Below are positions 17,906-61,658 of a stretch of DNA of 64,000 bases, in pieces. The stretch lies in NCBI GenBank assembly GCA_027450205.1, contig DAIDJL010000004.1, positions 75,932-139,931 of the forward strand. The letters run 5' to 3'. The notes beneath the pieces were generated by a model, which was not told where the DNA came from, ran no database searches, and saw only the letters and a program-made list of their open reading frames with translations. A program made the position numbers and the translations under genes. This DNA comes from Candidatus Parcubacteria bacterium. GTDB taxonomy: Bacteria > Patescibacteriota > Minisyncoccia > UBA6257 > 2-01-FULL-56-20. Every line of letters begins with the position of its first letter. The first letter of the stretch is position 1.

Positions 17906-18325
17906 ATGGACCCATCACCATCATTTGAAAGCGCGTTGGAGGCGGACATGAAAACGCTTGCGGCGGAGATCCACCGCACGCAGGAAATGAAGGATAAAAA
18001 GAATGCGGAGGGGTTGGATGTGTTAAAGGAAGCGATCCGCGCGTTTCCGCAGCTCGATCACGAAGGCTCCGGTGGAAACGGCGTTCCGGTTGCGCCGGCC
18101 GTAGCTGCAGCGCAGTCGGGCAGCCCGCTTCCTGCGTACGCACAGAACGCGCCTGCGGAGATAAAACTGGAGATAGAGTATCTGCTTGATGTTGCGTTTC
18201 GCAAGGGCATCGGCGCGGCGCTTTCCGAATCCGCGAAGTCACCGTACTTCGTGCAGGACGCGTTCCATGACGCGCTCGCGGGGCGGTTGTATCCGGAGCT
18301 GCAGAAGCGCGGTGTGCTGAAATAA
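17906..18325 (+). CDS. Hypothetical protein
   Basis: ORF with no recognisable motif; immediately upstream of the coupling-protein-like ATPase. Confidence 0.4.
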   Translation: MDPSPSFESALEADMKTLAAEIHRTQEMKDKKNAEGLDVLKEAIRAFPQLDHEGSGGNGVPVAPAVAAAQSGSPLPAYAQNAPAEIKLEIEYLLDVAFRKGIGAALSESAKSPYFVQDAFHDALAGRLYPELQKRGVLK

Positions 18326-18326
18326 C

Positions 18327-20732
18327 ATGGCGACCTTTTATTTATTTCTAGGGATCGTACTCGGCGCGGTCATCGTGGCCGTGGCGTTCTTCATCATTCG
18401 TGCATTTGCCCGCCGCCGCATTTTCGACTCCCTGCAGACATCTCTTTTTTTGATAAGGATCCCGAAGGCGGCGCCGGCGGACCGGTCGCCCGCCGGCGGC
18501 GAGGGCAGCGACTTCAAGACGGAGCTTGCGCACTTCGAGCAGCTGCTTGGCGGCCTGTCTGCCATCAAAAAACCGATCGTGTTCGAGGTGGCGGTGCCGC
18601 ATATCGGCGAAGAGATCCATTTTTATATCGGTGTCCCGAAGCTTTCCGCCGAAGTGGCGATGAAGCAGGTCCAGGGATTATGGAACGGTGCGAGCGTTGA
18701 GCTCGTACAGGACGATTTCAATATCTTCAACGCGAACGGCGCGACCGTTGCGGCGTATGTGGCGCAGAAAGAGCATTACGCGCTGCCGGTGCGGACGTAC
18801 GCGGAGCTTGGCGTGGATTCATTCGAGTCTATCGTGGGTGCGTTCGCGAAGATCAGCGAGATCGGCGAGGGCGCATCGCTCCAGCTCGTGGTGCGCGCGG
18901 CATCGGGCGGCTACAAGAAGGAGATCTATCACTATATTGAGGCATTAAAGAAGGGCGAGCCGATCAAGAAAGTTCTGGGTAAGAGCATTGTCTCCGGCGT
19001 CAGCGCGTCCGACGTTGCGGACGTCTTCAATCCAAAAACAAAAGAGGAGCAAGCGGAGGAAAAAGCAAAGCGCGTGGTGGATGACGAGGCGGTGAAAGCG
19101 CTGCAACTCAAAGTGGCGAAACCGCTCTTTGAGGTGAACTTGCGGCTGGTGGCGTCCGCCGGGTCGCCATTCCAGGCAAACGATATCCTGGACGGGCTTA
19201 CGGCGGGGTTCAGCCAGTTCGGCAGCCCGATGCGCAACGATTTTCGGATCGTAAAGCCGCGCAATCCGAAAAATATCGTGAATGACTTCATCTATCGCAT
19301 GTTCGATGACGGAGAAAAAATGCTGCTGTCGAGCGAAGAGATCGCGAGCATCTGGCATCTGCCGATTTCGTCCACCGAGACGCCGCGTGTGAAGTGGCTT
19401 AAAGCAAAGGAAGCCCCGCCGCCGGACAACCTTCCGAACAAGGGCCTTCTTATCGGCGATGCGACGTTTCGCGGGGCGGCAAAGCCGGTGTACATCACGG
19501 ATGACGACCGGCGCCGGCATATATATGTGATCGGACAGACCGGCACCGGAAAATCCACTTTGCTCGGCAATATGATCATTGAGGATATCCAGTCCGGCAA
19601 GGGCGTGGCGATCATCGATCCGCACGGCGATTTGGTGGAGAACGCGCTCGGCTTCGTGCCGAAGGAGCGGCTGGACGACGTCATCTACTTCAATCCCGGC
19701 GACCTCGAGCGCCCGCTCGGGCTCAATATGATCGATTTCAATCCGGCGCGGCCGGAAGAGAAGACGTTCATCGTAAACGAGATGCAGAGCATCTTCAACA
19801 AGCTGTTTTCACAGGAAACGATGGGTCCGATGTTCGAGCAGTACATGCGTAATGCGCTGTTGCTCATGATGGAGGACGCCGCGAATGAACCCGCCACACT
19901 CGTGGAGGTGCCGCGCATCTTTACCGACGTGGAGTATCGCAAGCGCAAGCTCGCGCGTATCCATAATCCCGTCGTCATAGACTTCTGGGAGAAGGAGGCG
20001 GTGAAGGCCGGCGGCGAAGCATCGCTCGCGAACATGACGCCGTACATCACGTCAAAATTCAACAATTTCATCTCCAACGATTATATGCGGCCGATCATCG
20101 GCCAGCCCAGGTCCGCGTTCAACTTCCGCGACGTGATGGATAATAAAAAAATATTGCTTATCAACTTGTCGAAGGGAAAGATAGGGGACATCAATGCCGG
20201 TTTGCTCGGTATGGTCTTCACGGGGAAGATCCTCATGGCGGCACTTTCGCGCGTGGACATTGCGGACGCGGACAAGCGCACCGACTTCAATTTATATATA
20301 GATGAGTTCCAAAACTTCACCACCGATTCCATCGCGACGATCCTTTCTGAAGCGCGCAAGTACCGCCTGAATCTCACGATGGCGCACCAGTTTATCGCCC
20401 AGCTGGAGGAAAAGATCAAAGACGCCGTTTTCGGCAACGTGGGTTCCGAGCTTGTGTTCCGCGTCGGCGTGACCGATGCCGAATTTCTCGTGAAGCAGTT
20501 CGAGCCCGCATTCAACCAGAACGACCTCGTGAACATCGACAACCTCAACGCATACGCGAAGATCCTGATCAACGGGCAGACATCGAAGCCGTTCAACCTC
20601 AAGATCGGCACCACATCATGGGGCGGCGGCAATAAAGAGCTTGCGGAGAAATTAAAGCAATATTCGCGGATGAAGTATGGCCAGGACCGCCAGGCGATCG
20701 AGGATGATATTTTCAGGAGGCTGCGTTCGTAG
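18327..20732 (+). CDS. Fused membrane-anchored N-domain + TrwB/TraD/VirD4-type (FtsK-HerA superfamily) P-loop ATPase
   Basis: N-terminal TM helix; GQTGTGKST Walker A, IIDPHGD, VIYFNPGDLERPLGLNMI, LYIDEFQNF Walker B, LTMAHQFIAQL; N-terminal half homologous to 55031-56353, C-terminal half to 56381-58111. Confidence 0.7.
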   Translation: MATFYLFLGIVLGAVIVAVAFFIIRAFARRRIFDSLQTSLFLIRIPKAAPADRSPAGGEGSDFKTELAHFEQLLGGLSAIKKPIVFEVAVPHIGEEIHFYIGVPKLSAEVAMKQVQGLWNGASVELVQDDFNIFNANGATVAAYVAQKEHYALPVRTYAELGVDSFESIVGAFAKISEIGEGASLQLVVRAASGGYKKEIYHYIEALKKGEPIKKVLGKSIVSGVSASDVADVFNPKTKEEQAEEKAKRVVDDEAVKALQLKVAKPLFEVNLRLVASAGSPFQANDILDGLTAGFSQFGSPMRNDFRIVKPRNPKNIVNDFIYRMFDDGEKMLLSSEEIASIWHLPISSTETPRVKWLKAKEAPPPDNLPNKGLLIGDATFRGAAKPVYITDDDRRRHIYVIGQTGTGKSTLLGNMIIEDIQSGKGVAIIDPHGDLVENALGFVPKERLDDVIYFNPGDLERPLGLNMIDFNPARPEEKTFIVNEMQSIFNKLFSQETMGPMFEQYMRNALLLMMEDAANEPATLVEVPRIFTDVEYRKRKLARIHNPVVIDFWEKEAVKAGGEASLANMTPYITSKFNNFISNDYMRPIIGQPRSAFNFRDVMDNKKILLINLSKGKIGDINAGLLGMVFTGKILMAALSRVDIADADKRTDFNLYIDEFQNFTTDSIATILSEARKYRLNLTMAHQFIAQLEEKIKDAVFGNVGSELVFRVGVTDAEFLVKQFEPAFNQNDLVNIDNLNAYAKILINGQTSKPFNLKIGTTSWGGGNKELAEKLKQYSRMKYGQDRQAIEDDIFRRLRS

Positions 20733-20738
20733 GGTGTA

Positions 20739-20766
20739 TTGACAGAATAATGATATATGCTATACT
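20739..20766 (+). promoter_or_regulatory. Sigma70-type promoter TTGACA-16-TATACT
   Basis: consensus hexamers directly after the upstream stop codon. Confidence 0.6.
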
Positions 20767-20772
20767 GATAGC

Positions 20773-21038
20773 AGTATTATTTTTTTGGCTGGGCATTTTA
20801 GGGCTGTGTGTTCGCCGAATGATATTCTGGAATATCATTATCCGATGTCCATGCAAGCGTGCGCCTTGCCAATATGCGCACTGGTGAGGGAGGCGGGGCT
20901 CTCACTAACTTTGCCAACCGGCTGGACAATGGGTCAAGACCGGACCCTATCACCGATTTCCAGGATCGGGGATCCGTCCAAACTTCGCAGCATGCCGCAA
21001 GGGCAGCCACATTGGTGGCTGCCCTTTCTTATTTTCAG
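20773..21038 (+). ncRNA. Candidate structured small RNA (promoter-to-terminator transcript without credible ORF)
   Basis: bounded by consensus promoter and strong terminator; multiple internal hairpins; 10-bp perfect palindrome aatgatattc-tg-gaatatcatt at 20818-20839. Confidence 0.4.
21001..21038 (+). terminator. Rho-independent terminator (10-bp perfect stem gggcagccac/gtggctgccc + TTTCTTATTTT)
   Basis: direct reading. Confidence 0.8.
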
Positions 21039-21057
21039 CTCTTTCAATTCGCTATGT

Positions 21058-21087
21058 TTGACATTTCTTGTGTTCGTGTTATATAAT
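21058..21087 (+). promoter_or_regulatory. Sigma70-type promoter TTGACA-16-TATATAAT
   Basis: consensus hexamers; followed by AGGAGG SD and ATG 21123. Confidence 0.5.
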
Positions 21088-21122
21088 ATTCATCGGAACC
21101 TAATATATGCAGGAGGGGTGAG

Positions 21123-21584
21123 ATGGTCCAAAAGGCAATCCCTATTTGCGGAATTCCGGCGCGTGTTCGTCGCTGGGAATATTTACAGCAGCGGGCGTCT
21201 TTTGGGAATCTGCGCATCCCCGAAAGACTACTGAAACAAAAAGCGAGCGCCGATGCCCTCTTGAAGCTTTTTCAAGAGAAAAAACGCCGGCAAAAATTTT
21301 TGGATCAAGCACTGCATCGGTATAGCATCGTTTGTAACCAACTCGAGCAAATCTTGATCCTCTCCGATAGGATGAAGATCCTGGAGAGGGAGTTTCTCGC
21401 AATACCGTTCCGCGATGACATTTTCGAGAAGCAAAGGAGGCTTCGTTCGTTATTTTCCACGTGCAGGGGCCAGATTCGGGAAGGGAACGTGGCGGGTATC
21501 CAGTCTGCGATCGGTGAAATAGAAGCGGAACTCGCGGGCGTCAAAGTAAGCTATTTCCCCAGACGCATCGCTTCGGCAAAATAG
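21123..21584 (+). CDS. Hypothetical protein (153 aa)
   Basis: own promoter, SD and terminator; no recognisable domain. Confidence 0.5.
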   Translation: MVQKAIPICGIPARVRRWEYLQQRASFGNLRIPERLLKQKASADALLKLFQEKKRRQKFLDQALHRYSIVCNQLEQILILSDRMKILEREFLAIPFRDDIFEKQRRLRSLFSTCRGQIREGNVAGIQSAIGEIEAELAGVKVSYFPRRIASAK

Positions 21585-21600
21585 TTTCGTGGTCAAAACC

Positions 21601-21646
21601 GACGACGGGTTGCATGCAGTAATTGCATACCCGTCGTCTTTTTTTT
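21601..21646 (+). terminator. Rho-independent terminator (gacgacgggt ... acccgtcgtc + T8)
   Basis: direct reading. Confidence 0.8.
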
Positions 21647-21687
21647 GCGTGCGTGAATAGTTCCGGATATTTTGATAAACTAGGAGC

Positions 21688-45014: not shown

Positions 45015-45189
45015 GGACCTCGTTGTATCGAGCTGCCCCTTCACAATTGAAATGGTAAGATAACCAAAAGAGAGAGTTTTTTAGTTGTCCCAATTTATTC
45101 TTTTTGGCAACGTTAAGAAGTAATCAAATGTTGCAACAATAAAATTAGGATCAACGTCCAAAGTTTTTGAGACTTTGGACGATATCTTT

Positions 45190-46740
<1,551 letters not shown>

Positions 46741-46835
46741 ATTAAACTACTATTTGGATAAATAGTAACAGTCGAACTTTCTTCTCTTTGGCCGGCGATC
46801 GATCGCAGGCGAAAGCGAGGGAGGTAATTGGGACA

Positions 46836-51620: not shown

Positions 51621-52874
51621 ATGAGGCGCCATCCAGGCCTATTTTTATCGCTTATCGTCATTCTCGCCATTATTGCGGGGGTGTTCGTTTACCCGAAGGG
51701 TATTGGAGAAAAAGTGGAGCCGTGGAAGCTCGGGCTTGATCTTGTGGGCGGCAGCCATCTTGTCTATCAGATCGATCTTTCCAATGTTTCCTCGACGAAC
51801 CAGGCATCCGTAGTGAATGGCTTGCGCAACGTCATTGAGAGGCGCGTGAATCTTTTTGGTGTCAGCGAACCGAATGTTTACACATCGCAGAGCGGCAATC
51901 AGGCCCAGCTTTTCGTGGATCTTGCCGGCGTAAAGAACATTAGCGACGCCATCAACCAGATCGGACAGACGCCGCTTCTGCAGTTCGAAGAAGTGCAAAC
52001 GGTGGGCTCCAGCACGCAATATATCCAGACGAACCTGACGGGTCAATATATCACCGGTGCGCAATTGACCTTTGATCCGACGACGAACGCGCCGCAGGTT
52101 TCCATTTCATTTAACAAGGACGGTACGCAGATATTTTCCGAAATGACGGCGGCGAATGTGGGTAAGCCGCTCGCGATATTTTTGGACGGACAATTGATCG
52201 AGGCGCCGACGGTTACTGAAGCGATCACGGGCGGACAGGCGGTCATCAGCGGAGGGTTCACGGTGGCATCGGCACAGCAGCTCGTGCAGCGGTTCAATGC
52301 CGGTGCCTTGCCTGCGCCGATCACGCTCGTGAGTCAGCAGACGATCAGCCCGTCGCTCGGCGCCGATTCAATGAAAGAGGTGATGATCGCCGGTCTTATC
52401 GGCACACTGCTCGTCATGCTCTTTATGATCTTTTATTATCGTCTGCTTGGCGTTTTTGCCGCACTTGCACTCCTTATTTATATCGCGCTTACACTCGGTC
52501 TTTTCAAGGCGATCCCGATCACGCTGAGCCTTGCGGGTCTCGCCGGTTTCGTCCTTACGATCGGCACTGCCGTGGACGCGAACGTGCTCATCTTTGAGCG
52601 CATCAAAGAGGAATTGAAGCGGGGATTGCCGAAATCGTCGGCGATCGAGGAAGGGTTCCGCCGCGCGTGGCCGTCCATCCGCGATTCGAATACTTCCACG
52701 ATCATCACGTCCATCATTCTCTATTTCTTTACCTCCAGTTTTGTGCAGGGATTCGCGCTCACCCTTCTTATCGGCACGCTTGTCAGCCTTTTCAGCGCTA
52801 TTACGACCACGCGGCTCTTCCTCCGGTTTTTCTTAAAAGACGCGAAACCGGCGACGGCATCCGTAAAAGCGTAA
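51621..52874 (+). CDS. secD: Protein translocase subunit SecD
   Basis: LGLDLVGG periplasmic head, six C-terminal TM (RND-like), synteny with secF; TATAAT 51607-51612 only 8 nt before ATG. Confidence 0.85.
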   Translation: MRRHPGLFLSLIVILAIIAGVFVYPKGIGEKVEPWKLGLDLVGGSHLVYQIDLSNVSSTNQASVVNGLRNVIERRVNLFGVSEPNVYTSQSGNQAQLFVDLAGVKNISDAINQIGQTPLLQFEEVQTVGSSTQYIQTNLTGQYITGAQLTFDPTTNAPQVSISFNKDGTQIFSEMTAANVGKPLAIFLDGQLIEAPTVTEAITGGQAVISGGFTVASAQQLVQRFNAGALPAPITLVSQQTISPSLGADSMKEVMIAGLIGTLLVMLFMIFYYRLLGVFAALALLIYIALTLGLFKAIPITLSLAGLAGFVLTIGTAVDANVLIFERIKEELKRGLPKSSAIEEGFRRAWPSIRDSNTSTIITSIILYFFTSSFVQGFALTLLIGTLVSLFSAITTTRLFLRFFLKDAKPATASVKA

Positions 52875-52887
52875 TTCATCTATCATC

Positions 52888-53787
52888 ATGCTTAACATCG
52901 TAGGACATAAAAAAATCTGGTTCACGATATCCATCGTTCTGGTAGGTATCGCTGTCGTCGCCATCGCCACGTTCGGGTTTAAGGAGAGTGCCGAACTCAA
53001 GGGAGGAACATTGTGGGAGTTCACCGTTTCCGGACAGAACCTTTCTGTTTCCGATGTTCAAAACGAGCTTGCCAACAATCTGCACATCGCCGATGCGCAG
53101 GTGAACTTTGATTCCGCCAACCAATCCTTCCTTGTGCGTTTTGGGAATGTGAACGAGGCGGCGCACCAGCAGTATGTGAACGAGCTTACGACCGCGTGGC
53201 CTTCGTTCCGCGAGTTAAGTTTCCAGTCCATCAGCGCGTCCGTGGGCGCGGATCTTCGCAATAAGGCGATCATCGCGATCATCCTCGTGCTCGTCGGCAT
53301 CTCGCTTTATATTGCGTTCGCGTTCCGCAAGGCGCAGCGGCCGATCAGTTCATGGAAATACGGATGGATCACGCTGCTCACCCTGTTTCACGACGTCGCC
53401 ATCCCGGCCGGCATGCTTGCCATCCTCGGTCACTTCGTAAACGTACAGATCGATTCCAACTTCATCGTGGCGCTGCTTGTCGTCATGGGATTCTCCGTGC
53501 ACGACACCATTGTTGTCTTTGACCGCATTCGCGAGAACCTCCTCAATCATCGCGGCAAAGTTCCGTTTTCCACGATCATCAACGACAGCGTCAACCAGAC
53601 GCTCGCACGCTCCATCAACACTTCCCTGACGCTTATTCTGGTGTTGCTTGCGCTCTATTTCGTCGGTCCCGCTGACCTTAAATATTTCGTGCTTACCCTG
53701 CTTGTAGGGGTCACAACGGGCATTTACTCGTCCATCTTCATCGCCAGCCCTGCATTGGTAATGGTGAGCTCGGATGAGAGCGTATAG
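52888..53787 (+). CDS. secF: Protein translocase subunit SecF
   Basis: SecF TM core (HDVAIPAG ... VHDTIVVFDRIREN). Confidence 0.85.
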   Translation: MLNIVGHKKIWFTISIVLVGIAVVAIATFGFKESAELKGGTLWEFTVSGQNLSVSDVQNELANNLHIADAQVNFDSANQSFLVRFGNVNEAAHQQYVNELTTAWPSFRELSFQSISASVGADLRNKAIIAIILVLVGISLYIAFAFRKAQRPISSWKYGWITLLTLFHDVAIPAGMLAILGHFVNVQIDSNFIVALLVVMGFSVHDTIVVFDRIRENLLNHRGKVPFSTIINDSVNQTLARSINTSLTLILVLLALYFVGPADLKYFVLTLLVGVTTGIYSSIFIASPALVMVSSDESV

Positions 53788-53935
53788 CCGGGTGCCGTGA
53801 GGGTTGACTGCGGTTGCGATATAGTTTAATATGAAATGCAATAGAACAGGATAAATTGTGCTGAAAGTCCAGTCTGGCGCAGGGGAATATTGACATTTAT
53901 ATATAAATAATATATTATATCAACGTTGTAAAAAC

Positions 53936-54967
53936 ATGGCATCGATCATCAAACTTATCACGACATCGCTCGCCGGTCTTAATCCTCGCCAAAAAGAGGT
54001 TATTACGGCTCGTTTTGGCCTGGATGGTAAGACCGACGGCGAGACCCTCGCTGCGATCGGCGACCGGTTGAATGTTACCCGCGAGCGCGTCCGCCAGATA
54101 GAGAATGGCGCGATTGTGCTCGTAAAGGCCAATATTGCAAAGAATCCGGAAGCGGGCGTTGTTTTGGAGAAGGTGAAGAAATTTATCGCAGCCCGCGGGG
54201 GCGTGTCCGGTAAGCCGGAAGTTGTCCGCTTTGCGGCAACGCTTGCGCACGGCGCGCGCGAGAACCATCTCGATTTCCTCGCCGAGGCGTCTGGCGTGTT
54301 CAATCTTCACCGCGAAGACGACGCCTTCCATCCTTTTTATTATGTTTCCGACAAGGATCTCAAGACGGCCAGCGCGTTCGTGAATGGCTGGGTAGGATTT
54401 TTGAAATCGCACAAAGAGAGGGTGTTCGCCGATTCGTATCAGGTCCAGCTTGCGAGCTTTCTTAAAACGAAGTCCGTTGCGCAGGAAGTCGCCGATAATT
54501 ATTTGAGCATTTCAAAGCAGATCGGCAGGAACCCGTACGGCGATGTGGGACTTTATGAGTGGCCCGAGATCAACCCTGCGACCGTCCGTGACAAGATCTA
54601 TCTCGTGCTCAAAAAGAAGGCGGAGCCGCTCCACTTTGAGGACATCGCGACGCATATCAATAAGGTTGGATTTGACGACCAGAAAGCGCTTGCGCCTACC
54701 GTACATAACGAGCTCATCAAAGACGGCCGTTTCGTGCTCGTCGGCCGCGGCATGTACGGTCTTAGGGAACATGGATACGAACCGGGTACCGCGCGGGAGG
54801 TGATCGCCAAGGTCCTTAAGACCAAGGGCCCGCTTAAACCGACCGACGTCGTGACGCACGTGAACGCGCAGCGTTTCTTTAAGCAGAACACGATCCTTAT
54901 CAATCTCCAGAATCGGAACTTTTTCGAACGCATGAACGACGGCAGATATCGCGTCCGCGAGTCCTAA
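53936..54967 (+). CDS. Sigma-70 region-4-like HTH protein with large uncharacterised C-terminal domain
   Basis: LNPRQKEVITARFGL ... ETLAAIGDRLNVTRERVRQIENGA (sigma70_r4 pattern) in first 60 aa only. Confidence 0.55.
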   Translation: MASIIKLITTSLAGLNPRQKEVITARFGLDGKTDGETLAAIGDRLNVTRERVRQIENGAIVLVKANIAKNPEAGVVLEKVKKFIAARGGVSGKPEVVRFAATLAHGARENHLDFLAEASGVFNLHREDDAFHPFYYVSDKDLKTASAFVNGWVGFLKSHKERVFADSYQVQLASFLKTKSVAQEVADNYLSISKQIGRNPYGDVGLYEWPEINPATVRDKIYLVLKKKAEPLHFEDIATHINKVGFDDQKALAPTVHNELIKDGRFVLVGRGMYGLREHGYEPGTAREVIAKVLKTKGPLKPTDVVTHVNAQRFFKQNTILINLQNRNFFERMNDGRYRVRES

Positions 54968-55030: not shown

Positions 55031-56353
55031 TTGATGTATATGGGTAATCTTTTTCCAGCCATCCAGGTCCCTTCCGTGCTCGCGGGCGTCATTCAGAGCA
55101 TTCTCGTGGTATGGGGAGCGGTCTGGTGGTTCGTACTGCCGCTCATCGCCGCCATGATCTTATGGGAGGCGTGGCTTTTGCACCTCCATTATCAGTTCGT
55201 TCACAGTATTAAATGGAAGCTGCTTGAGATCAAAGTGCCGAAGAATGTGCTCAAAACCCCGAAGGCGATGGAACAGATATTCGCCGCGGCGCATGCGCCG
55301 TATTCGTACGGGATCCCGTGGTATAAGAAGTACGTGGATGGACAGGAAGAATATTGGATGGTCTTTGAGCTCGTCGGCCGGGCCGGCGAGACGCATTTCT
55401 ATCTTCGTGTGCCGACGCAATACCGGAACATGATGGAGTCGGCGATCTATGCCGCATATCCGGAAGCGGAGATCACCGAAGCCGACGATTATTTGGAAGA
55501 ACTGCCGCAGGCGCTCCCGAACGAGACATTCGATCTTTCCGGGCTTGAAGAAGTGTTGCGGCATGAAAATTATCTGCCGATACGCACCTATCCGATGTTC
55601 GAGGAATCAGTGGAAGAACGGCGCATTGATACGATCGCACCGCTTATGGAGGCAATGTCCAAGCTGAAGAACAGCGAACAACTTTGGTTCCAGGTGCTCA
55701 TCAAGCCGACGGGCGAAGATTTTCGGAAGGAAGGGGAGGAGGCGATAAAAAAACTGTTGGGGATAGAAGAGGAAAAGAAAAAGAAACCGAGCCTGTTCCC
55801 GAAGTTTGATCTCGGCATTTCGATGGGCGAGGCGCTTCGCGCCCCGTTCGAGCATCCGGGTGAGGCAAAGTCGCACAAAGAAGAAAAGCAGGAAAAATTT
55901 CCCCGTTTTCTCATGACGCCGGTGGATAAGGAGCGTGCGGACGCTATCCATCTCAAGATATCCAAGATCGCGTTCGAGGCGACCCTGCGCTTTGTTTACA
56001 TTGAAAAGCGCGATGAGGCTGCGGAATCCGGCCACACCAATTCCATCCATGGGTTCATCCGCCAGTTCAATACGCAGAATCTCAATTCGCTCAAGCCGGA
56101 CAGCCCTACGAATACGGCGTCGTATTCGGTGAAGGGCCCGATCTTCAAGAAGATGCGCGTCCGGGCGCGCAAACATAATATGTATGAGCACTATCGACAT
56201 TTCATCCCGTCTCACCACGAATCGATCCTCAACATAGAGGAGCTCGCGACCGTGTTTCATTTCCCATTGGCGGTCGTTTCAACGACCGAGCTAGAAAAAG
56301 TGGAGTCGCGCAAGGGGAGTCCGCCGGCATCGCTTCCTATTATCGAGGAATAG
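55031..56353 (+). CDS. Membrane-anchored partner protein (homolog of N-terminal half of 18327-20732)
   Basis: N-terminal TM; HFYLRVP, WFQVLIKP, EELATVFHFPL match HFYIGVP, LQLVVRA, EEIASIWHLPI of the fused paralog. Confidence 0.6.
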   Translation: MMYMGNLFPAIQVPSVLAGVIQSILVVWGAVWWFVLPLIAAMILWEAWLLHLHYQFVHSIKWKLLEIKVPKNVLKTPKAMEQIFAAAHAPYSYGIPWYKKYVDGQEEYWMVFELVGRAGETHFYLRVPTQYRNMMESAIYAAYPEAEITEADDYLEELPQALPNETFDLSGLEEVLRHENYLPIRTYPMFEESVEERRIDTIAPLMEAMSKLKNSEQLWFQVLIKPTGEDFRKEGEEAIKKLLGIEEEKKKKPSLFPKFDLGISMGEALRAPFEHPGEAKSHKEEKQEKFPRFLMTPVDKERADAIHLKISKIAFEATLRFVYIEKRDEAAESGHTNSIHGFIRQFNTQNLNSLKPDSPTNTASYSVKGPIFKKMRVRARKHNMYEHYRHFIPSHHESILNIEELATVFHFPLAVVSTTELEKVESRKGSPPASLPIIEE

Positions 56354-56380: not shown

Positions 56381-58111
56381 ATGGCAAACGGAAAATCACC
56401 AACAGACATCACGCCGATCGGATACCATAATTTTCGCGGCAACAGCGACCAGAAATTCGGCATCAAAGCGGATGATCGTCGGCGCCACATTTATGTCGTC
56501 GGAAAGACCGGCGTCGGAAAATCCACGTTGCTTGAGAATATGGCGATCGCCGACATTGAGGCCGGACGCGGCATTGCATTCCTTGATCCGCACGGCGAAT
56601 CCGCGGAGAAGCTCCTTGATTTCGTCCCGGAGGAGCGCCTGGATGACGTCATCTACTTCGATCCGTCGGACATGGAATATCCGATCGCATTCAATCCGAT
56701 GGAGCAGGTGGGCACGGAGTTCCGCCACCTGGTTGCCTCCGGTATCATGGGCGTGTTCAAGAAGATCTGGGTGGACGCCTGGTCCGCGCGCATGGAGTAT
56801 ATTTTGAACAATACGCTGCTTGCGCTCCTCGAGCTGCCGAACTCGACCTTATTGGGCGTTTTAAGGATGTTTGCCGAGCCGCCGTATCGCAAAAAAATAG
56901 TGGATAACCTGCAGGATCCCGTTATCAAGGCCTTCTGGCAGAACGAATTCGCACGATATTCGCAGAAGCTTGAGACCGAGGCGCTGGCCGCCATTCAGAA
57001 CAAGGTCGGGCAGTTCGTTTCAAATCCGCTGATCCGAAATATTCTCGGCCAGTCGCGCTCCACGATCAATATGCGCGATATCATGGATACGGGAAAGATA
57101 TTCATCGTCAATCTTTCAAAGGGAAAGATGGGGGAAGACAATTCGGCTTTGCTTGGCGCCATGATCATCTCGCGACTGCAGCTTGCCGCGATGTCGCGCG
57201 TGGATATTCCGGAGGACAAGCGCCGCGACTTTTTCATGTACGTGGATGAATTCCAGAACTTTGCGACGGATTCGTTCGCGAGCATTTTGTCCGAAGCGCG
57301 CAAATACCACCTTTCGCTTACCCTGGCCCATCAGTACATCGGCCAGTTGGTAACGAACGACGGCAACACGAAGGTGCGCGACGCGGTGTTCGGCAATGTT
57401 GGCACGATCATCACATTTCGCGTGGGCGCCGCCGACGGCGAATTTCTGGAAAAGGAATTTATGCCGGAATTCTTACAGAACGATCTTGTGAATCTGGCAA
57501 AGGCAAATATTTATATAAAACTGATGATCGACGGCGTGTCATCCAAGCCGTTTTCGGCAACGACGCTGCCGCCGCATATCCAGCCGCTCCAGTCGTACCG
57601 GGATATCATAATCAAAAATACCCGCGAACATTATGCGGTTCCGCGCAGGATCGTGGACGAGCGGATTGCGAGCGAGTGGAATGCCAGCAGTGAAGCGGCC
57701 ATCAATGAAAAGATCGGACGCCGGGATGAGAAGCCGCTTTCGCAGGTCTTGCGCCCGGGCGGCGGCACGGCGCCGCACACTTCCGACGTGCGTCCACGTG
57801 AACGCTATATGCCGCCGCGGCAATCCGTGACCTCATCGCCGACTCCGCCCGTTTCTTCTCCGCGGACGGCTTCCAACACTCCTCCTCCGTCCGTGCCGGT
57901 GATCGCTCCCGCTGCGCCGGCGGTTCGCGTGATGCGGCAGGAGCCGGCGGCGTCCGAGCCCGCTCCTGCTCCTGCGCCAAAACAGTTCGTCAGACCCAAG
58001 GTGGACATAGAAGCGCTCCGCCGTTCCATTAATGAATCGTTAAAAAAACAGGCGGAAGACGGTGTCGCGCCGATCGATCCCGTTAAGCCGCCTGACGAAT
58101 CCCCGAAGTGA
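56381..58111 (+). CDS. TrwB/TraD/VirD4-type (FtsK-HerA superfamily) P-loop ATPase with Pro/Ser-rich disordered C-terminus
   Basis: GKTGVGKST, FLDPHGE, VIYFDPSDMEYPIAFNPM, MYVDEFQNF, LTLAHQYIGQL; paralog of C-terminal half of 18327-20732. Confidence 0.7.
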   Translation: MANGKSPTDITPIGYHNFRGNSDQKFGIKADDRRRHIYVVGKTGVGKSTLLENMAIADIEAGRGIAFLDPHGESAEKLLDFVPEERLDDVIYFDPSDMEYPIAFNPMEQVGTEFRHLVASGIMGVFKKIWVDAWSARMEYILNNTLLALLELPNSTLLGVLRMFAEPPYRKKIVDNLQDPVIKAFWQNEFARYSQKLETEALAAIQNKVGQFVSNPLIRNILGQSRSTINMRDIMDTGKIFIVNLSKGKMGEDNSALLGAMIISRLQLAAMSRVDIPEDKRRDFFMYVDEFQNFATDSFASILSEARKYHLSLTLAHQYIGQLVTNDGNTKVRDAVFGNVGTIITFRVGAADGEFLEKEFMPEFLQNDLVNLAKANIYIKLMIDGVSSKPFSATTLPPHIQPLQSYRDIIIKNTREHYAVPRRIVDERIASEWNASSEAAINEKIGRRDEKPLSQVLRPGGGTAPHTSDVRPRERYMPPRQSVTSSPTPPVSSPRTASNTPPPSVPVIAPAAPAVRVMRQEPAASEPAPAPAPKQFVRPKVDIEALRRSINESLKKQAEDGVAPIDPVKPPDESPK

Positions 58112-58826: not shown

Positions 58827-59270
58827 ATGGCAGATTTCATCGTTCTTTCGTTGGCACGACTCCTTTCGCAAGTATATCGAAATTTACGAAAGAAGTTGGC
58901 GCTTTTTAATACGGCAAAACGCGTTGACGGGTACAAACCCAGCGTGCGGCGCCTTAATCTTCGTCGGGCACTTCTGCCCGAGTTGAGGACCCACGCACGG
59001 ACGATCAAGCGGTATCAAGAAAAGCTTGATTATTGGCGCCTTCAAAAGCGTAAAGAAAAATCCCGCATCAAGAGAAAGCATTGCGAAGACAATATCAATG
59101 CCATTAAAATTCTGATCTATAACCAAAGGCTCAAGTGTGAGAAAATTTGGAAACACCTCAAAGCGTACGACGCATTGCCGGTGGACTCTTCGACCAAGCG
59201 GCCATGGCAAAGCATAGATGCTTATATTGAGCATCTGAGCGTCGCCAAGAAAGAGGCATTGTATGCATGA
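58827..59270 (+). CDS. Hypothetical basic protein (147 aa)
   Basis: Lys/Arg-rich ORF; overlaps comEC start by 4 nt. Confidence 0.4.
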   Translation: MADFIVLSLARLLSQVYRNLRKKLALFNTAKRVDGYKPSVRRLNLRRALLPELRTHARTIKRYQEKLDYWRLQKRKEKSRIKRKHCEDNINAIKILIYNQRLKCEKIWKHLKAYDALPVDSSTKRPWQSIDAYIEHLSVAKKEALYA

Positions 59271-60769
59271 TGGTGCCTCACCGGCGCGACTCTTCAATGA
59301 GCCGCGCCATTTTTTATATTCTTTTAATCCCGCATGCGTATGATGGATGCATGTATATGCCCATAAGAGCGGGGGATATTTCTTTTTATGCCGCGGCGGC
59401 ATTCATGTCCGGTGTGTTTGCGGCGAATATGGGTTGGAATTTATGGATGCTCGGCACGGCGAGTTTTACTGCCGGCGCAATGCTCGTTCTATATACCCGG
59501 ATATCTTGGAAGTATGCCGTGTTTATTCTTTTCGCAGCATTTGCCGGCGCACTCTATTATTCTGCGTATGTCCACTGGAATGCGGCGCACATCAGGCTGC
59601 CGGGCGGGAAACATGCTGCATTCTTTGGAGTGATAAAAGAAGAGCCGAAGCAGGCGGGGAATTTTATCATGCTTGCCGTTTCGCTTTCGCGCCCGTATGC
59701 CGGCGCGGTAGATATTTTTACTATGCCGGGCATCACCTCATTTCATTACGGCGACGAGCTATGGGTGAACGGATCGGTGGATGCCTCAAAAGATCCTGGC
59801 GCGTCGCCGGCGGTATTCCTGCCGCGATTGCGCGTGGTCGCGCAACACGAAGGGTTTTGGCTCAGGGAGTGGCTTATCGATCTCAAGGAGGCCATCATAA
59901 GGAAGATCGTAAAGATGCTGCCGCCGGATCAGGCCGCGCTCCTCGCCGGGATCATGGTCGGTACGACGGGTACGATAAGCGCCGCGCTCAGAGCCCAGAT
60001 GGAGATATCGGGTACGACATATATCGTGAATATGTTCGGATACAAGATCGCGCTTATCACCGCCGCGCTCGCTGCGGTGCTCAAGGATCGCCTGCCGCGC
60101 CGGTGGCTTCTCGCGGTCACGCTTGGCGTGGTCGCACTTTTTGTGCTCGCGTCTGGCGCCGGCGTTTCCGCGGTACGCGCGGCGGTGATGGGGTCGTTCG
60201 CCGTCATCGCACGCGGGACGGGAAAGGTGTTCAGTCCGCGGCACGCAGTGGCGTTCGCCGCACTCGGTATGGTGCTTGCGGACGCGACACTCCTCACCGA
60301 TGCCGGATTCCAGCTCTCATTTCTAAGCTTCATCGGCATCTATTACCTTGCCGATCCGGTCAATAATCTGTTCCGTTGGACCGACGGGGGAGTGTTGCAA
60401 TGGAAAGAACACGCGATGCTTTCACTGACCACCAATCTTGCGATCCTGCCGGTCGTGATAAATACGTTCGGCGAGTTTTCGCTGACGTCGTTCATCTCCA
60501 ATGTTCTTATCATGATCCCGTGGCTCGCGGTGTTCGCATTCGGCGGGCTTACCACCGTGCTTGGCAGCATCTTCCCGCCGCTCGCGTTCTGTGCGGTACA
60601 GGTTGTGGGCGTGCTCATGCAATATGAACTTTTTGTCATCCATTTGTTCAGCATCGCCGCCGTGCCGATGCCGGCGGTATTCGGTTCGCCGTTCGCGATC
60701 GCATTCTATTACGGCGCACTCATTGTTTTTACCTATTACTATGGCGCGCCAGCGCAAAATAATAATTGA
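59267..60769 (+). CDS. comEC: ComEC/Rec2 competence channel, membrane portion
   Basis: DUF4131-like N-terminus + Competence domain TM core (LLAGIMVG ... YIVNMFGYKIAL ... LSFLSF); true start possibly internal. Confidence 0.7.
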   Translation: MMVPHRRDSSMSRAIFYILLIPHAYDGCMYMPIRAGDISFYAAAAFMSGVFAANMGWNLWMLGTASFTAGAMLVLYTRISWKYAVFILFAAFAGALYYSAYVHWNAAHIRLPGGKHAAFFGVIKEEPKQAGNFIMLAVSLSRPYAGAVDIFTMPGITSFHYGDELWVNGSVDASKDPGASPAVFLPRLRVVAQHEGFWLREWLIDLKEAIIRKIVKMLPPDQAALLAGIMVGTTGTISAALRAQMEISGTTYIVNMFGYKIALITAALAAVLKDRLPRRWLLAVTLGVVALFVLASGAGVSAVRAAVMGSFAVIARGTGKVFSPRHAVAFAALGMVLADATLLTDAGFQLSFLSFIGIYYLADPVNNLFRWTDGGVLQWKEHAMLSLTTNLAILPVVINTFGEFSLTSFISNVLIMIPWLAVFAFGGLTTVLGSIFPPLAFCAVQVVGVLMQYELFVIHLFSIAAVPMPAVFGSPFAIAFYYGALIVFTYYYGAPAQNNN

Positions 60770-61658
60770 CATCGGGAGCGCACTCGTCATTTTGGCGCTC
60801 ATTGTGCTTTCCGCGGCGGTAGGGGAAAGGATCTTTTTGGATGTTCGCACGCGGGCGAGCGGGAGCGGAGGAAATGGTGGCGGCAGTGGCAGCGCGGGCG
60901 CGTCGCACATCTATTTTTTCTCCGTGACACAGGGCGCGTCGTCGTTGCTTGTGTTGCCGGGCGGCATCACCGTGCTTACTGACGCGGGTTCCGATAATGC
61001 CATCGTGAACGAATTGCAAACAGTGATGCCGCCCAACGTCGGACAATACATTGACCTTGCGATCATTTCCTCCCCGCAATCTGCGGATTACGGGGGATAT
61101 CAATACCTTCTCGCGCACTATACCATTGGCGCGTTTTTATATAACGGCCGGAGCGATGCCGTGCATAAGACCGAGTGGCAGCAATTGATGACTGCGATCG
61201 TCACAAAACATATTCCACTCATCACTATAGCTGCGGGAGATCGTATTCGGTATGGCACCGATGCCGCTATAGACATTCTTTCGCCGGACGGCGATTTTGC
61301 GCATAGCGCGGACCCGAGCGATACCGGGATCGTCCAGCGGGTTGCAACGCCTGCATTCACCGTGTTGCTTGCTGCCGATATGGGTGCAAATGTTGAGAAT
61401 GCCTTGATTGCGCGAGGCAATGGCACGAACGCGACGGATTTGCGCGCAAACATCCTCAAGGCGCCGTTTCCCGGAGTGGGTACCGCCGCCGGAGACGTGT
61501 TCCTGCGCGCTGTTGCCCCCAAAACGGTGGTCGTTATGCCGGGAGTGAAGGGCACCGCGAGCGTGCCGACGAAGGCGATGCTCGCGCATCTGGCATCATC
61601 CACGAACGCGGCGATAGTGTCGCCCAAAGGCGGCTCTTTTTTGTTGTATAATAAGTAG
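60741..61658 (+). CDS. ComEC-associated metallo-beta-lactamase-fold domain protein (separate ORF, own TM anchor)
   Basis: TM helix then YFFSVTQGASSLLVLPGG ... DAGSD pattern of ComEC C-terminal MBL domain; start set at MARQRK. Confidence 0.55.
   Translation: MARQRKIIIDIGSALVILALIVLSAAVGERIFLDVRTRASGSGGNGGGSGSAGASHIYFFSVTQGASSLLVLPGGITVLTDAGSDNAIVNELQTVMPPNVGQYIDLAIISSPQSADYGGYQYLLAHYTIGAFLYNGRSDAVHKTEWQQLMTAIVTKHIPLITIAAGDRIRYGTDAAIDILSPDGDFAHSADPSDTGIVQRVATPAFTVLLAADMGANVENALIARGNGTNATDLRANILKAPFPGVGTAAGDVFLRAVAPKTVVVMPGVKGTASVPTKAMLAHLASSTNAAIVSPKGGSFLLYNK

Follow-up and report, generated by a model that had tools for sequence, protein, structure and literature searches.

Type IV coupling proteins (T4CPs) such as TrwB of plasmid R388, VirD4, TraD, DotL and Cagbeta are membrane-anchored ATPases of the FtsK/HerA superfamily, which share a Walker A context, a DPxGD motif, a Walker B motif and an all-alpha insertion and have no DUF8128 or VirB4-like domain between anchor and motor. 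Longer T4CPs of 800–900 amino acids (aa) are encoded on plasmids of the monoderm bacteria Embleya and Shouchella, beside a relaxase and VirB3/VirB4/VirB1-like genes, and combine a DUF8128-like N-domain, the junction motif LSxEExAxxxH[LF]P and a T4CP-type ATPase. In Patescibacteria, Quinonero-Coronel et al. (2025; PMC12102498) counted with CONJScan profiles 5,713 VirD4-type T4CP homologues in 2,918 of 3,035 genomes, approximately two per genome, of which just 148 lie near virB4. Here we describe a stretch of 64,000 nucleotides (nt) from a Candidatus Parcubacteria bacterium (contig DAIDJL010000004.1, positions 75,932 to 139,931; referred to below as the window) in which a module of this kind is encoded twice, once as the fused copy A and once as copy B, which is split into the adjacent genes B1 and B2 (Table 1).

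We consider it very probable that A and B1+B2 are two ancient paralogues of the “long” monoderm T4CP, each consisting of a membrane helix, a DUF8128 domain of ~310 aa and a TrwB/VirD4-like motor. In contrast to the plasmid T4CPs, the copies in the window belong to the chromosomal core, are duplicated with one copy split, have their own distinct partner genes and have neither a type IV secretion system (T4SS) nor a relaxase nearby. For the complete explanation, which joins this identity to the joint mode of action proposed below, we estimate a probability of about 0.5. Orphan T4CPs of Patescibacteria are already published at the level of counts, and because these are present at about two per genome and rarely near virB4, we infer that they are almost certainly A and B2. 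What is added here is the architecture, the fused and split pair, the partner genes and the degree of conservation; in the passages of the survey article that were consulted, neither the DUF8128/VirB4-like N-domain nor the fused-plus-split pair, the partner genes or the conservation level is described. Patescibacteria account for much of bacterial diversity and rely on host cells for their building blocks. In the only species so far amenable to genetics their T4SS is essential, but it comes without a relaxase and without an adjacent coupling protein.

Architecture and family of the two modules

A is paralogous over its entire length to the neighbouring pair B1+B2, and the similarity is far beyond chance. 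By BLASTP, 388 aa of A and B2 align with 47% identity (E=1e-113), and the N-terminal half of A (residues 96–370) matches B1 (residues 120–436) with 24% identity over ~325 aa (E=4e-11). A tblastn search with A found exactly one further copy in the window, running collinearly through B1 and then B2 (35% over 739 aa, E=7e-117). Walker A (GQTGTGKS, aa 403–410), DPHGD (431), Walker B (LYIDEF, 656–661) and AHQ (686) are present in A, and B2 has the equivalent set GKTGVGKS, DPHGE, MYVDEF and AHQ. An earlier note on this DNA had proposed three open reading frames (ORFs) here that represent a module occurring once fused and once split, with homology in both halves; the ORFs and all motifs that it quoted for A are present, and BLASTP, tblastn and the tree described below agree with the proposed duplication.

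Hydrophobic membrane anchors are predicted only for A (one helix, aa 1–33) and B1 (one or two, ~aa 7–52), and a scan of the B2 sequence for such an anchor gave none. The break between B1 and B2 coincides with the interdomain linker of A, with which the C-terminus of B1 and the N-terminus of B2 are collinear. B1 and B2 are truly separate genes, because two in-frame stop codons, TAG and then TGA, lie between them. Read-through or a sequencing frameshift as origin of the split is ruled out by these stops together with the split state of copy B in 68 of 68 loci.

Sequence comparison places the ATPases of A and B2 in the VirD4/TrwB coupling-protein lineage, taken as a family in the broad sense. Three coupling-protein families of Pfam exceeded their cut-offs by modest margins, namely T4SS-DNA_transf (A 35.9 and B2 35.5 bits, cut-off 20.1), TrwB_AAD_bind (26.8 and 30.4 bits, cut-off 20.5) and TraG-D_C (24.1 and 24.9 bits, cut-off 22); on B2, TrwB_AAD_bind aligned over profile positions 11–311 of 387. 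The NCBIfam T4CP models (SXT_TraD subfamily; TraD, CD1115 and TrbC equivalogs) scored at best 50 bits against a cut-off of 366, and A and B2 appear to form a distant T4CP subfamily that corresponds to none of the named NCBIfam equivalogs. In sequence searches of the PDB, with the single protein and with the family profile, TrwB was the best match, followed by HerA and DotL; the TrwB match covers the stretch RH[LI]xVxGxTGxGKS...DPxGD and the Walker B region, no VirB4/TrwK match was obtained at E values up to 10, and neither FtsK nor TcpA was matched. The structural matches of the ATPase half of A were DotL, TrwB (TMt 0.51, 16% identity) and Cagbeta, then HerA, and FtsK and TcpA were not among the matches of the fold searches either. 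The structural identity of A to the canonical T4CPs is ~14–16%, and as in these proteins the model of A shows an all-alpha insertion, with helices only at ~aa 476–605 between the Walker A and Walker B strands.

The assignment as coupling protein stands because relatives from outside the Candidate Phyla Radiation (CPR) occupy the T4CP position beside relaxases and align with the CPR proteins end to end. On an Embleya linear plasmid, the homologue (WP_331738717.1; 31% identity, E=5e-57) is an 812-aa T4CP within a typical monoderm conjugation cluster in the order PrgI/VirB3-like protein, VirB4-like ATPase, T4CP, replication-relaxation relaxase and NlpC/P60 protein. In Shouchella clausii, the 883-aa homologue WP_248290882.1 is encoded directly upstream of a relaxase and is the sole T4CP candidate on a 31-kb Tcp-type plasmid that also encodes a separate VirB4-like ATPase. 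With hhalign, the CPR profile aligned with the Embleya T4CP across the N-domain, the HLP motif and the whole ATPase (probability 100%, E=3e-47); the alignment with the Shouchella protein likewise spans the N-domain and the whole ATPase (E=1.5e-34). Across the ATPase, the identity to the long monoderm T4CPs is 25–32%, and the plasmid relatives are annotated as “T4SS conjugative DNA transfer family” or “DUF87 domain-containing”. A literature search on DUF87 in combination with coupling proteins found nothing relevant. An N-domain of the DUF8128 type is an ancestral feature of the long T4CPs encoded by conjugative elements of monoderm bacteria. Plasmid pLS20 was considered as plasmid prototype and rejected, its T4CP (gene 48) being canonical with two transmembrane (TM) segments (PMC8557374).

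The nominal top Pfam match of A is DUF87/HerA with 38 bits, likewise above threshold, and a PADLOC mad8 score of 55 bits, a full-length match to phrog_5156 (E=6e-81) and homologues in phages point in the same direction, i.e. to what is left of a prophage or of an integrated conjugative element, or to a HerA-type helicase or defence ATPase (HerA plus nuclease, or mad8 of MADS) encoded by accessory genes. The DUF87 match, however, spans only the P-loop stretch at aa 387–482; the NCBIfam HerA model NF040819 gave 16 bits against a cut-off of 970, and the N-domain of A resembles VirB4 and not the HAS-barrel expected of HerA. Neither a nuclease partner nor an integrase, relaxase or methylase gene adjoins the modules, which keep the same chromosomal position in ~160 loci from many Parcubacteria lineages and are conserved above core genes (see below). 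We find such an origin hardly credible, and the synteny and conservation effectively refute it. The proposal of the earlier note that the ATPase is of VirD4/TrwB/TraD type, which a plain HerA with a nuclease partner would have refuted, thus agrees with the three Pfam families above threshold, with TrwB as best PDB match and with the profile alignments to relaxase-adjacent T4CPs. The phage homologues, from SPO1-like, G, SP-10 and D6E phages of Bacillus and Geobacillus, are full-length including the N-domain, share 20–27% identity and are grouped in phrog_5156, to which no function is assigned; that of D6E falls outside the CPR clades. D6E ORF23 (L169, 5758–8016) is encoded between a partition protein and an integrase, in the lysogeny/maintenance region.

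The N-domain was taken in the earlier note for a membrane-anchored extension. It is membrane-anchored, but more than a mere extension, namely, to judge from its orthologues, a DUF8128 domain with a predicted fold like that of the VirB4 N-terminal domain. The orthologues of A and B1 carry the Pfam family PF26449 (DUF8128) as precomputed annotation; on the window proteins the local Pfam copy gave no match to it, and it is precomputed on the entries with 100% identity (P0001 and P0121) and on all close orthologues. A literature search on DUF8128 found nothing relevant. In an AlphaFold2 (AF2) model of residues 1–383 of A (predicted local distance difference test, pLDDT, 86; predicted template modelling score, pTM, 0.81), a long membrane helix is followed by an alpha/beta domain up to residue ~345, which terminates in the conserved motif EEIASIWHLP, and by a disordered linker. 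When the N-domain was compared with the PDB by Foldseek, the top 14 matches were all TrwK, the VirB4 of R388 (E=4e-7 to 2e-5, probability 1.0), followed by noise, and the model of full-length A (pLDDT 80) is collinear with TrwK end to end (835–912 columns, E=1e-11). Sequence searches gave no counterpart to this: hhalign of the B1 family against plasmid VirB4 returned a probability of 0.1%, 65 B1 members scanned against Pfam at permissive settings yielded no match to CagE_TrbE_VirB, and a DUF8128-containing profile (alignment A1) found nothing among PDB sequences. We thus assign a VirB4-type fold to the N-domain at the level of predicted folds. With its VirB4-type N-domain and T4CP-type motor, the protein would therefore be a hybrid.

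The two-domain architecture and the N-domain fold, which match only VirB4/TrwK, also suggest a different reading, in which both modules are divergent VirB4-type assembly ATPases that energise the assembly of a pilus or channel, with B1 and B2 analogous to a split of the TrsD-plus-TrsE kind. TrsD (pGO1-type), a remote homologue of the VirB4 N-terminus, is encoded separately from its ATPase, and no other T4SS-related protein is as abundant in Patescibacteria (PMC12102498). The split of copy B resembles that of TrsD and TrsE, but TrsD partners a true VirB4, whereas B1 partners what appears to be a T4CP-type ATPase. A differs from TrwK/VirB4 in that it has no sequence similarity to it in either domain, carries T4CP-like ATPase motifs and has no VirB3/6/8 adjacent. 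The sequence signal of the ATPase is that of TrwB, as described above; the Pfam family CagE_TrbE_VirB was not matched, and the VirB4 model TIGR00929 reached 20 bits against a cut-off of 643. Furthermore, the plasmids that encode long forms also carry a genuine VirB4 as a gene of its own, these long forms adjoin a relaxase, Patescibacteria possess their own VirB4 clade with VirB3/6/8 neighbours (PMC12102498), and no VirB3/VirB6/VirB8-type genes were found in the window or the surveyed flanks. We consider VirB4-type assembly ATPases very unlikely and retain the assignment of both motors to the coupling proteins.

Duplication, fission and conserved partner genes

Relatives of the modules were compared in ~160 loci, of which 80 at species level were found with a B1 profile (29–85% identity) and a further 80, from metagenomes, with a profile of A (57–92% identity). 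In these, B1 was never fused to B2 (68 of 68 loci), and A was a single ORF in all 75 orthologous loci. An exhaustive profile search returned 2,494 B1-type clusters at 50% identity, of which the top 150 are all unfused; A has more than 4,900 homologues, the top 120 with 70–100% identity. A neighbour-joining tree built on 420 ATPase columns recovers A and B2 as reciprocally monophyletic clades and leaves the homologues from plasmids and phages outside of them, with identities of 70–75% within the clades, 43% between A and B and 21–30% to the outgroups. This pattern suggests that a single old duplication occurred in the lineage and that one copy then broke into two genes at the linker; it indicates that the duplication took place in an ancestor of these Parcubacteria/Paceibacteria and that A remained fused and B split thereafter. 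The A and B modules co-occur on the same large contigs.

Among 45 loci, which were selected on B1 and are hence unbiased for B2, B2 was the most conserved gene of the neighbourhood in all 45; the median identities were 72% for B2, 61% for SecD, 52% for SecF, 45% for the sigma/HARE protein described below and 44% for B1. The corresponding comparison, by which A is the most conserved gene, is biased, as those loci were selected and ranked on A. Because synteny is kept in a housekeeping context and B2 is conserved above SecD and SecF, we regard A and B, as judged from their sequences, as fixed chromosomal core genes under strong purifying selection and not as debris of mobile elements.

Each module has its own gene directly upstream. 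For A this is a small ORF encoding a soluble protein of 119–139 aa, found immediately upstream of A orthologues in 67 of the 70 loci with enough flank and conserved in its C-terminal half in a relative (L003); it had no match in Pfam, NCBIfam, PHROG or PADLOC. For copy B it is a gene whose product combines a sigma70-region-4 helix-turn-helix (HTH) with a HARE-HTH domain and has neither sigma region 2 nor a TM segment. This gene is immediately upstream of B1 in 79 of 80 loci overall and in 73 of 74 with adequate flank, and B2 is immediately downstream of B1 in all 70 loci with enough flank. A promoter-like site (11/12 match, 53890–53918) lies ahead of the sigma/HARE gene. The small ORF was also considered as a possible paralogue of the sigma/HARE gene, in which case the duplication would have spanned three genes; the two show no similarity, and the idea was rejected.

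Table 1. Features of copies A and B and of their surroundings (coordinates within the window)
Feature	Position	Strand	Description
Small partner gene of A	17906..18325	+	139 aa, no TM segment; its stop and the start of A are 1 nt apart
Copy A, fused long coupling-protein paralogue (very probable assignment)	18327..20732	+	ORF, 801 aa
N-terminal membrane helix of A (aa 1–36)	18327..18434	+	Hydrophobic 1–33; modelled as a single long helix, residues 2–36, pLDDT 88–98
DUF8128 domain of A (aa 37–345), VirB4-N-terminal-domain-like predicted fold	18435..19361	+	PF26449 on orthologues; AF2 model
Disordered interdomain linker of A (aa 346–373)	19362..19445	+	pLDDT <50 at 349–363; B lineage cut at the equivalent position
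T4CP-type P-loop ATPase of A (aa 374–765)	19446..20621	+	Assigned by motifs, secondary structure and structural matches
Terminator-like hairpin downstream of A	20999..21026	+	12 pairs, 8 G-C, then a T-run; consensus scan only
secD-secF, upstream context of B	51621..53787	+	Upstream in 51/62 loci with enough flank; Pfam labels in relatives
Sigma70-region-4/HARE-HTH partner gene of B	53936..54967	+	343 aa; Sigma70 region 4 HTH aa 12–60, HARE-HTH aa 216–278 (Pfam, NCBIfam)
Copy B part 1 (B1), membrane anchor and standalone DUF8128	55031..56353	+	ORF; 440 aa from a TTG start, 439 aa from ATG at 55034
Copy B part 2 (B2), soluble T4CP-type ATPase (aa 1–440) and tail (aa 441–576)	56381..58111	+	ORF, 576 aa
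comEC as two genes, downstream context of B	59267..61658	+	NCBIfam ComEC matches; partial, eroding linkage

Proposed function of the modules

By analogy to other T4CPs, we hypothesize that each unit would form a ring-shaped ATPase of the FtsK/HerA superfamily, docked at the membrane, which picks a substrate and feeds it into a translocation channel. The DUF8128 domain would tether the motor to the membrane platform, the role of the N-domain in VirB4. In copy B, tether (B1) and motor (B2) would be joined non-covalently, and B2, without an anchor of its own, would rely on B1 for its membrane anchoring. The upstream partner proteins may act as module-specific adaptors or regulators, and the unlike ends of A and B2 could be docking sites for these different partners: A ends in two short helices (aa 770–800), whereas B2 carries a tail of 136 aa (aa 441–576; 57701–58108) that is rich in Pro, Ala, Arg and Ser, probably disordered, and ends in a short charged helix-like segment. 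Since its partner has two DNA-binding HTH domains, module B is suggested to handle nucleic acid or nucleoprotein.

The most probable channel would be the chromosomal T4SS of Patescibacteria, which has no relaxase and would be encoded at another site of the genome. According to the survey (PMC12102498), 80% of Patescibacteria genomes have a chromosomal T4SS, and the T4CP homologues are almost never beside it; VirB4 was found in 2,417 genomes as a clade nested in the monoderm MPF-FATA class, and relaxases are nearly absent. The chromosomal T4SS is the most parsimonious channel because it derives from the same monoderm conjugation stock as the long T4CPs and is otherwise without an adjacent T4CP. 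A T4SS is likely to be encoded elsewhere in the source genome. The earlier note had described a minimal motor and not a full T4SS; due to the distribution found in the survey, this cannot be concluded from the window. A function of A and B as substrate-coupling motors of this T4SS is proposed tentatively, at a little under even odds.

Several observations weigh against this function. In line with what the earlier note had observed for T4SS components, none of the window's remaining large or unassigned ORFs was identified as VirB4, VirB6, a relaxase or a pilin. In the 2.37 Mb flanking 165 related loci, no T4SS gene was detected by tblastn with VirB4, VirB3, TcpC and relaxase probes, a negative result of low sensitivity that is weak because the probes were proteins from Actinomycetota and Bacillota. 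The proposed coupling of A and B to a T4SS is based on family placement and published co-occurrence, and their linkage to the partner genes is one of conserved adjacency only, in a lineage in which synteny is generally well kept. In Ca. Southlakia epibionticum, the t4cp homologue is non-essential and the T4SS genes are essential (cited in PMC12102498); redundancy between paralogues could mask its role, and this organism belongs to a different class. Finally, 96% of the genomes have T4CP homologues but only 80% have VirB4 (PMC12102498), a gap that could be explained by the presence of two targets in incomplete metagenome-assembled genomes (MAGs).

If A and B do not serve a T4SS, they might, along the lines suggested in the earlier note, be DNA or RNA translocases exapted for the uptake of nucleic acids, pulling these through ComEC or handing them to it, with the sigma70_r4/HARE-HTH protein as nucleic-acid-binding partner. 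The motor family pumps DNA, the partner of module B has two HTH domains, and the extreme conservation of the genes occurs in a lineage unable to make nucleotides. Host nucleic acid or RNA has been proposed as food taken up via T4SS-like tubes (bioRxiv 10.64898/2026.06.21.733656), and an exaptation of Patescibacteria T4CPs was left open by the authors of the survey (PMC12102498). The earlier note had pointed to comEC as neighbour of the split copy, and comEC, in two ORFs, is indeed encoded downstream of B2. It lies within ~8 kb downstream of B1 in 21 of 25 loci with at least 45% B1 identity and in 9 of 26 loci with 25–45% identity, well in excess of the ~1% that chance alone would give a single-copy gene of a ~1 Mb genome, and in some of the latter loci (L065, L067) it follows B2 directly with no trmD between. 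In the window, however, trmD and one small ORF (58827–59270) lie between B2 and comEC, and in the loci with 25–45% B1 identity trmD is almost always gone from this position. As the loci diverge, the linkage to comEC fades, whereas secDF and the partner gene are kept. This linkage exceeds chance but resembles an inherited gene order in decay, and the links to the partner genes are far stronger; these genes, and not comEC, appear to be the key neighbours of the modules. The fused copy A has no competence neighbour, and a physical link of the A or B proteins to ComEC is lacking. We know of no ComEC system that employs a T4CP. In Ca. S. epibionticum, loss of comEC had no effect on viability (PMC12857230). 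We regard an uptake function of this kind as unlikely.

The gene neighbourhoods could also be taken to indicate an exaptation to housekeeping outside of secretion and uptake, either as an FtsK-like translocase in segregation or division or as an ATPase of envelope biogenesis. A sits in a conserved mreBCD-PBP2...PMT_2 neighbourhood, and B follows secDF, with ftsW and murG nearby in one relative (L006). Such a role would account for these cell-envelope neighbours and for the extreme conservation above SecD and SecF, and T4CPs and FtsK are sister families (PMC12857230). Against this, the neighbours are generic housekeeping genes of conserved order, so that adjacency says little; FtsK_SpoIIIE (PF01580) was matched with 16 bits against a cut-off of 24 and by A only, no FtsK gamma domain was found, and FtsK was absent from the PDB matches. 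An exaptation to housekeeping is in our view quite unlikely, and we continue to favour T4CPs that act as coupling motors for a distant T4SS.

The orphan T4CPs of Parcubacteria thus resolve into two putatively ancient modules that are separately partnered, conserved above SecDF and equipped with a docking domain of predicted VirB4-like fold, which turns a survey count into testable objects, namely partners, channel and cargo. The DUF8128 architecture suggests a structural bridge between VirB4 and VirD4 and bears on the evolution of conjugation ATPases. Due to their architecture, their conservation and the essential-looking role, the modules are a good experimental target. We speculate further that the pair might be lineage-defining, practically universal, T4CP-derived nucleic-acid motors that are no longer conjugative and import or process DNA or RNA of the host for these episymbionts, which are auxotrophic for nucleotides, perhaps together with ComEC or a T4SS tube and with the HARE-HTH protein as cargo adaptor, and that DUF8128 might attest to a shared full-length two-domain ancestor of T4CPs and VirB4 whose N-domain was secondarily lost in proteobacterial T4CPs; this wider scenario is doubtful as it stands.

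Further features of the window and of related loci

The window is a chromosome segment of ordinary type for Patescibacteria (Parcubacteria/Paceibacteria), with a G+C content of 53.7%, and its best-matching database proteins come from MAGs of “Candidatus Paceibacterota/Minisyncoccia”. Its gene content includes rnc, smc, mreBCD, PBP2, rplU, pgk, secDF, trmD, comEC, a lone 16S rRNA gene and two tRNAs. The 16S rRNA gene (45189–46748) is complete (1371 bits) and stands alone; no 23S rRNA was detected in the window, including the 17 kb downstream of it, and the rRNA genes therefore appear to be unlinked, as is often seen in Patescibacteria.

The two comEC ORFs overlap, with 59267–60769 encoding the N-terminal DUF4131/Competence part and 60561–61658 (probable start near 60741) the C-terminal part. 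As relatives (L006, L007) share the two-gene form, the split is a conserved arrangement and not a pseudogene.

Three groups of related loci deserve mention. In one of them (L005, 11321–12766; on the same contig as L017, contig_7304, 913,682 nt), the gene after B1 encodes a 481-aa chimera of a B2 N-terminus with a weak DUF87 match and transketolase domains, which reflects either a genuine rearrangement at the expense of B2 or an error of the assembly. Many binchicken MAG contigs labelled “uncultured Candidatus Saccharibacteria” (L015, L022-L024, L027 and others) carry a Parcubacteria-type sigma/HARE-B1-B2 locus with 56–77% B1 identity, and the same group contains a contig labelled “Nanoarchaeota archaeon” (L030); these taxon labels look unreliable. 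A Sulfitobacter mediterraneus plasmid (L170, 6989–8176) encodes an ATPase-only relative of 395 aa (35%, E=1e-64), the top identity outside the phylum, which adjoins transposases and stands alone, with no N-domain gene annotated beside it.

The strong terminator-like hairpin downstream of A probably closes a transcription unit that consists of the small ORF and A. The gap between A and pgk measures ~950 nt (20733–21687), whereas pgk abuts A in the closest surveyed relative (L003). Within the gap, a 153-aa ORF (21123–21584) had no match across 80 related loci, and a perfect (12/12) sigma70-like promoter match lies at 21058–21087. At the other module, the GTG start of trmD overlaps the stop codon of B2 (GTGA, 58108–58111), and this overlap suggests a translational coupling of the tRNA methyltransferase gene to the B operon.

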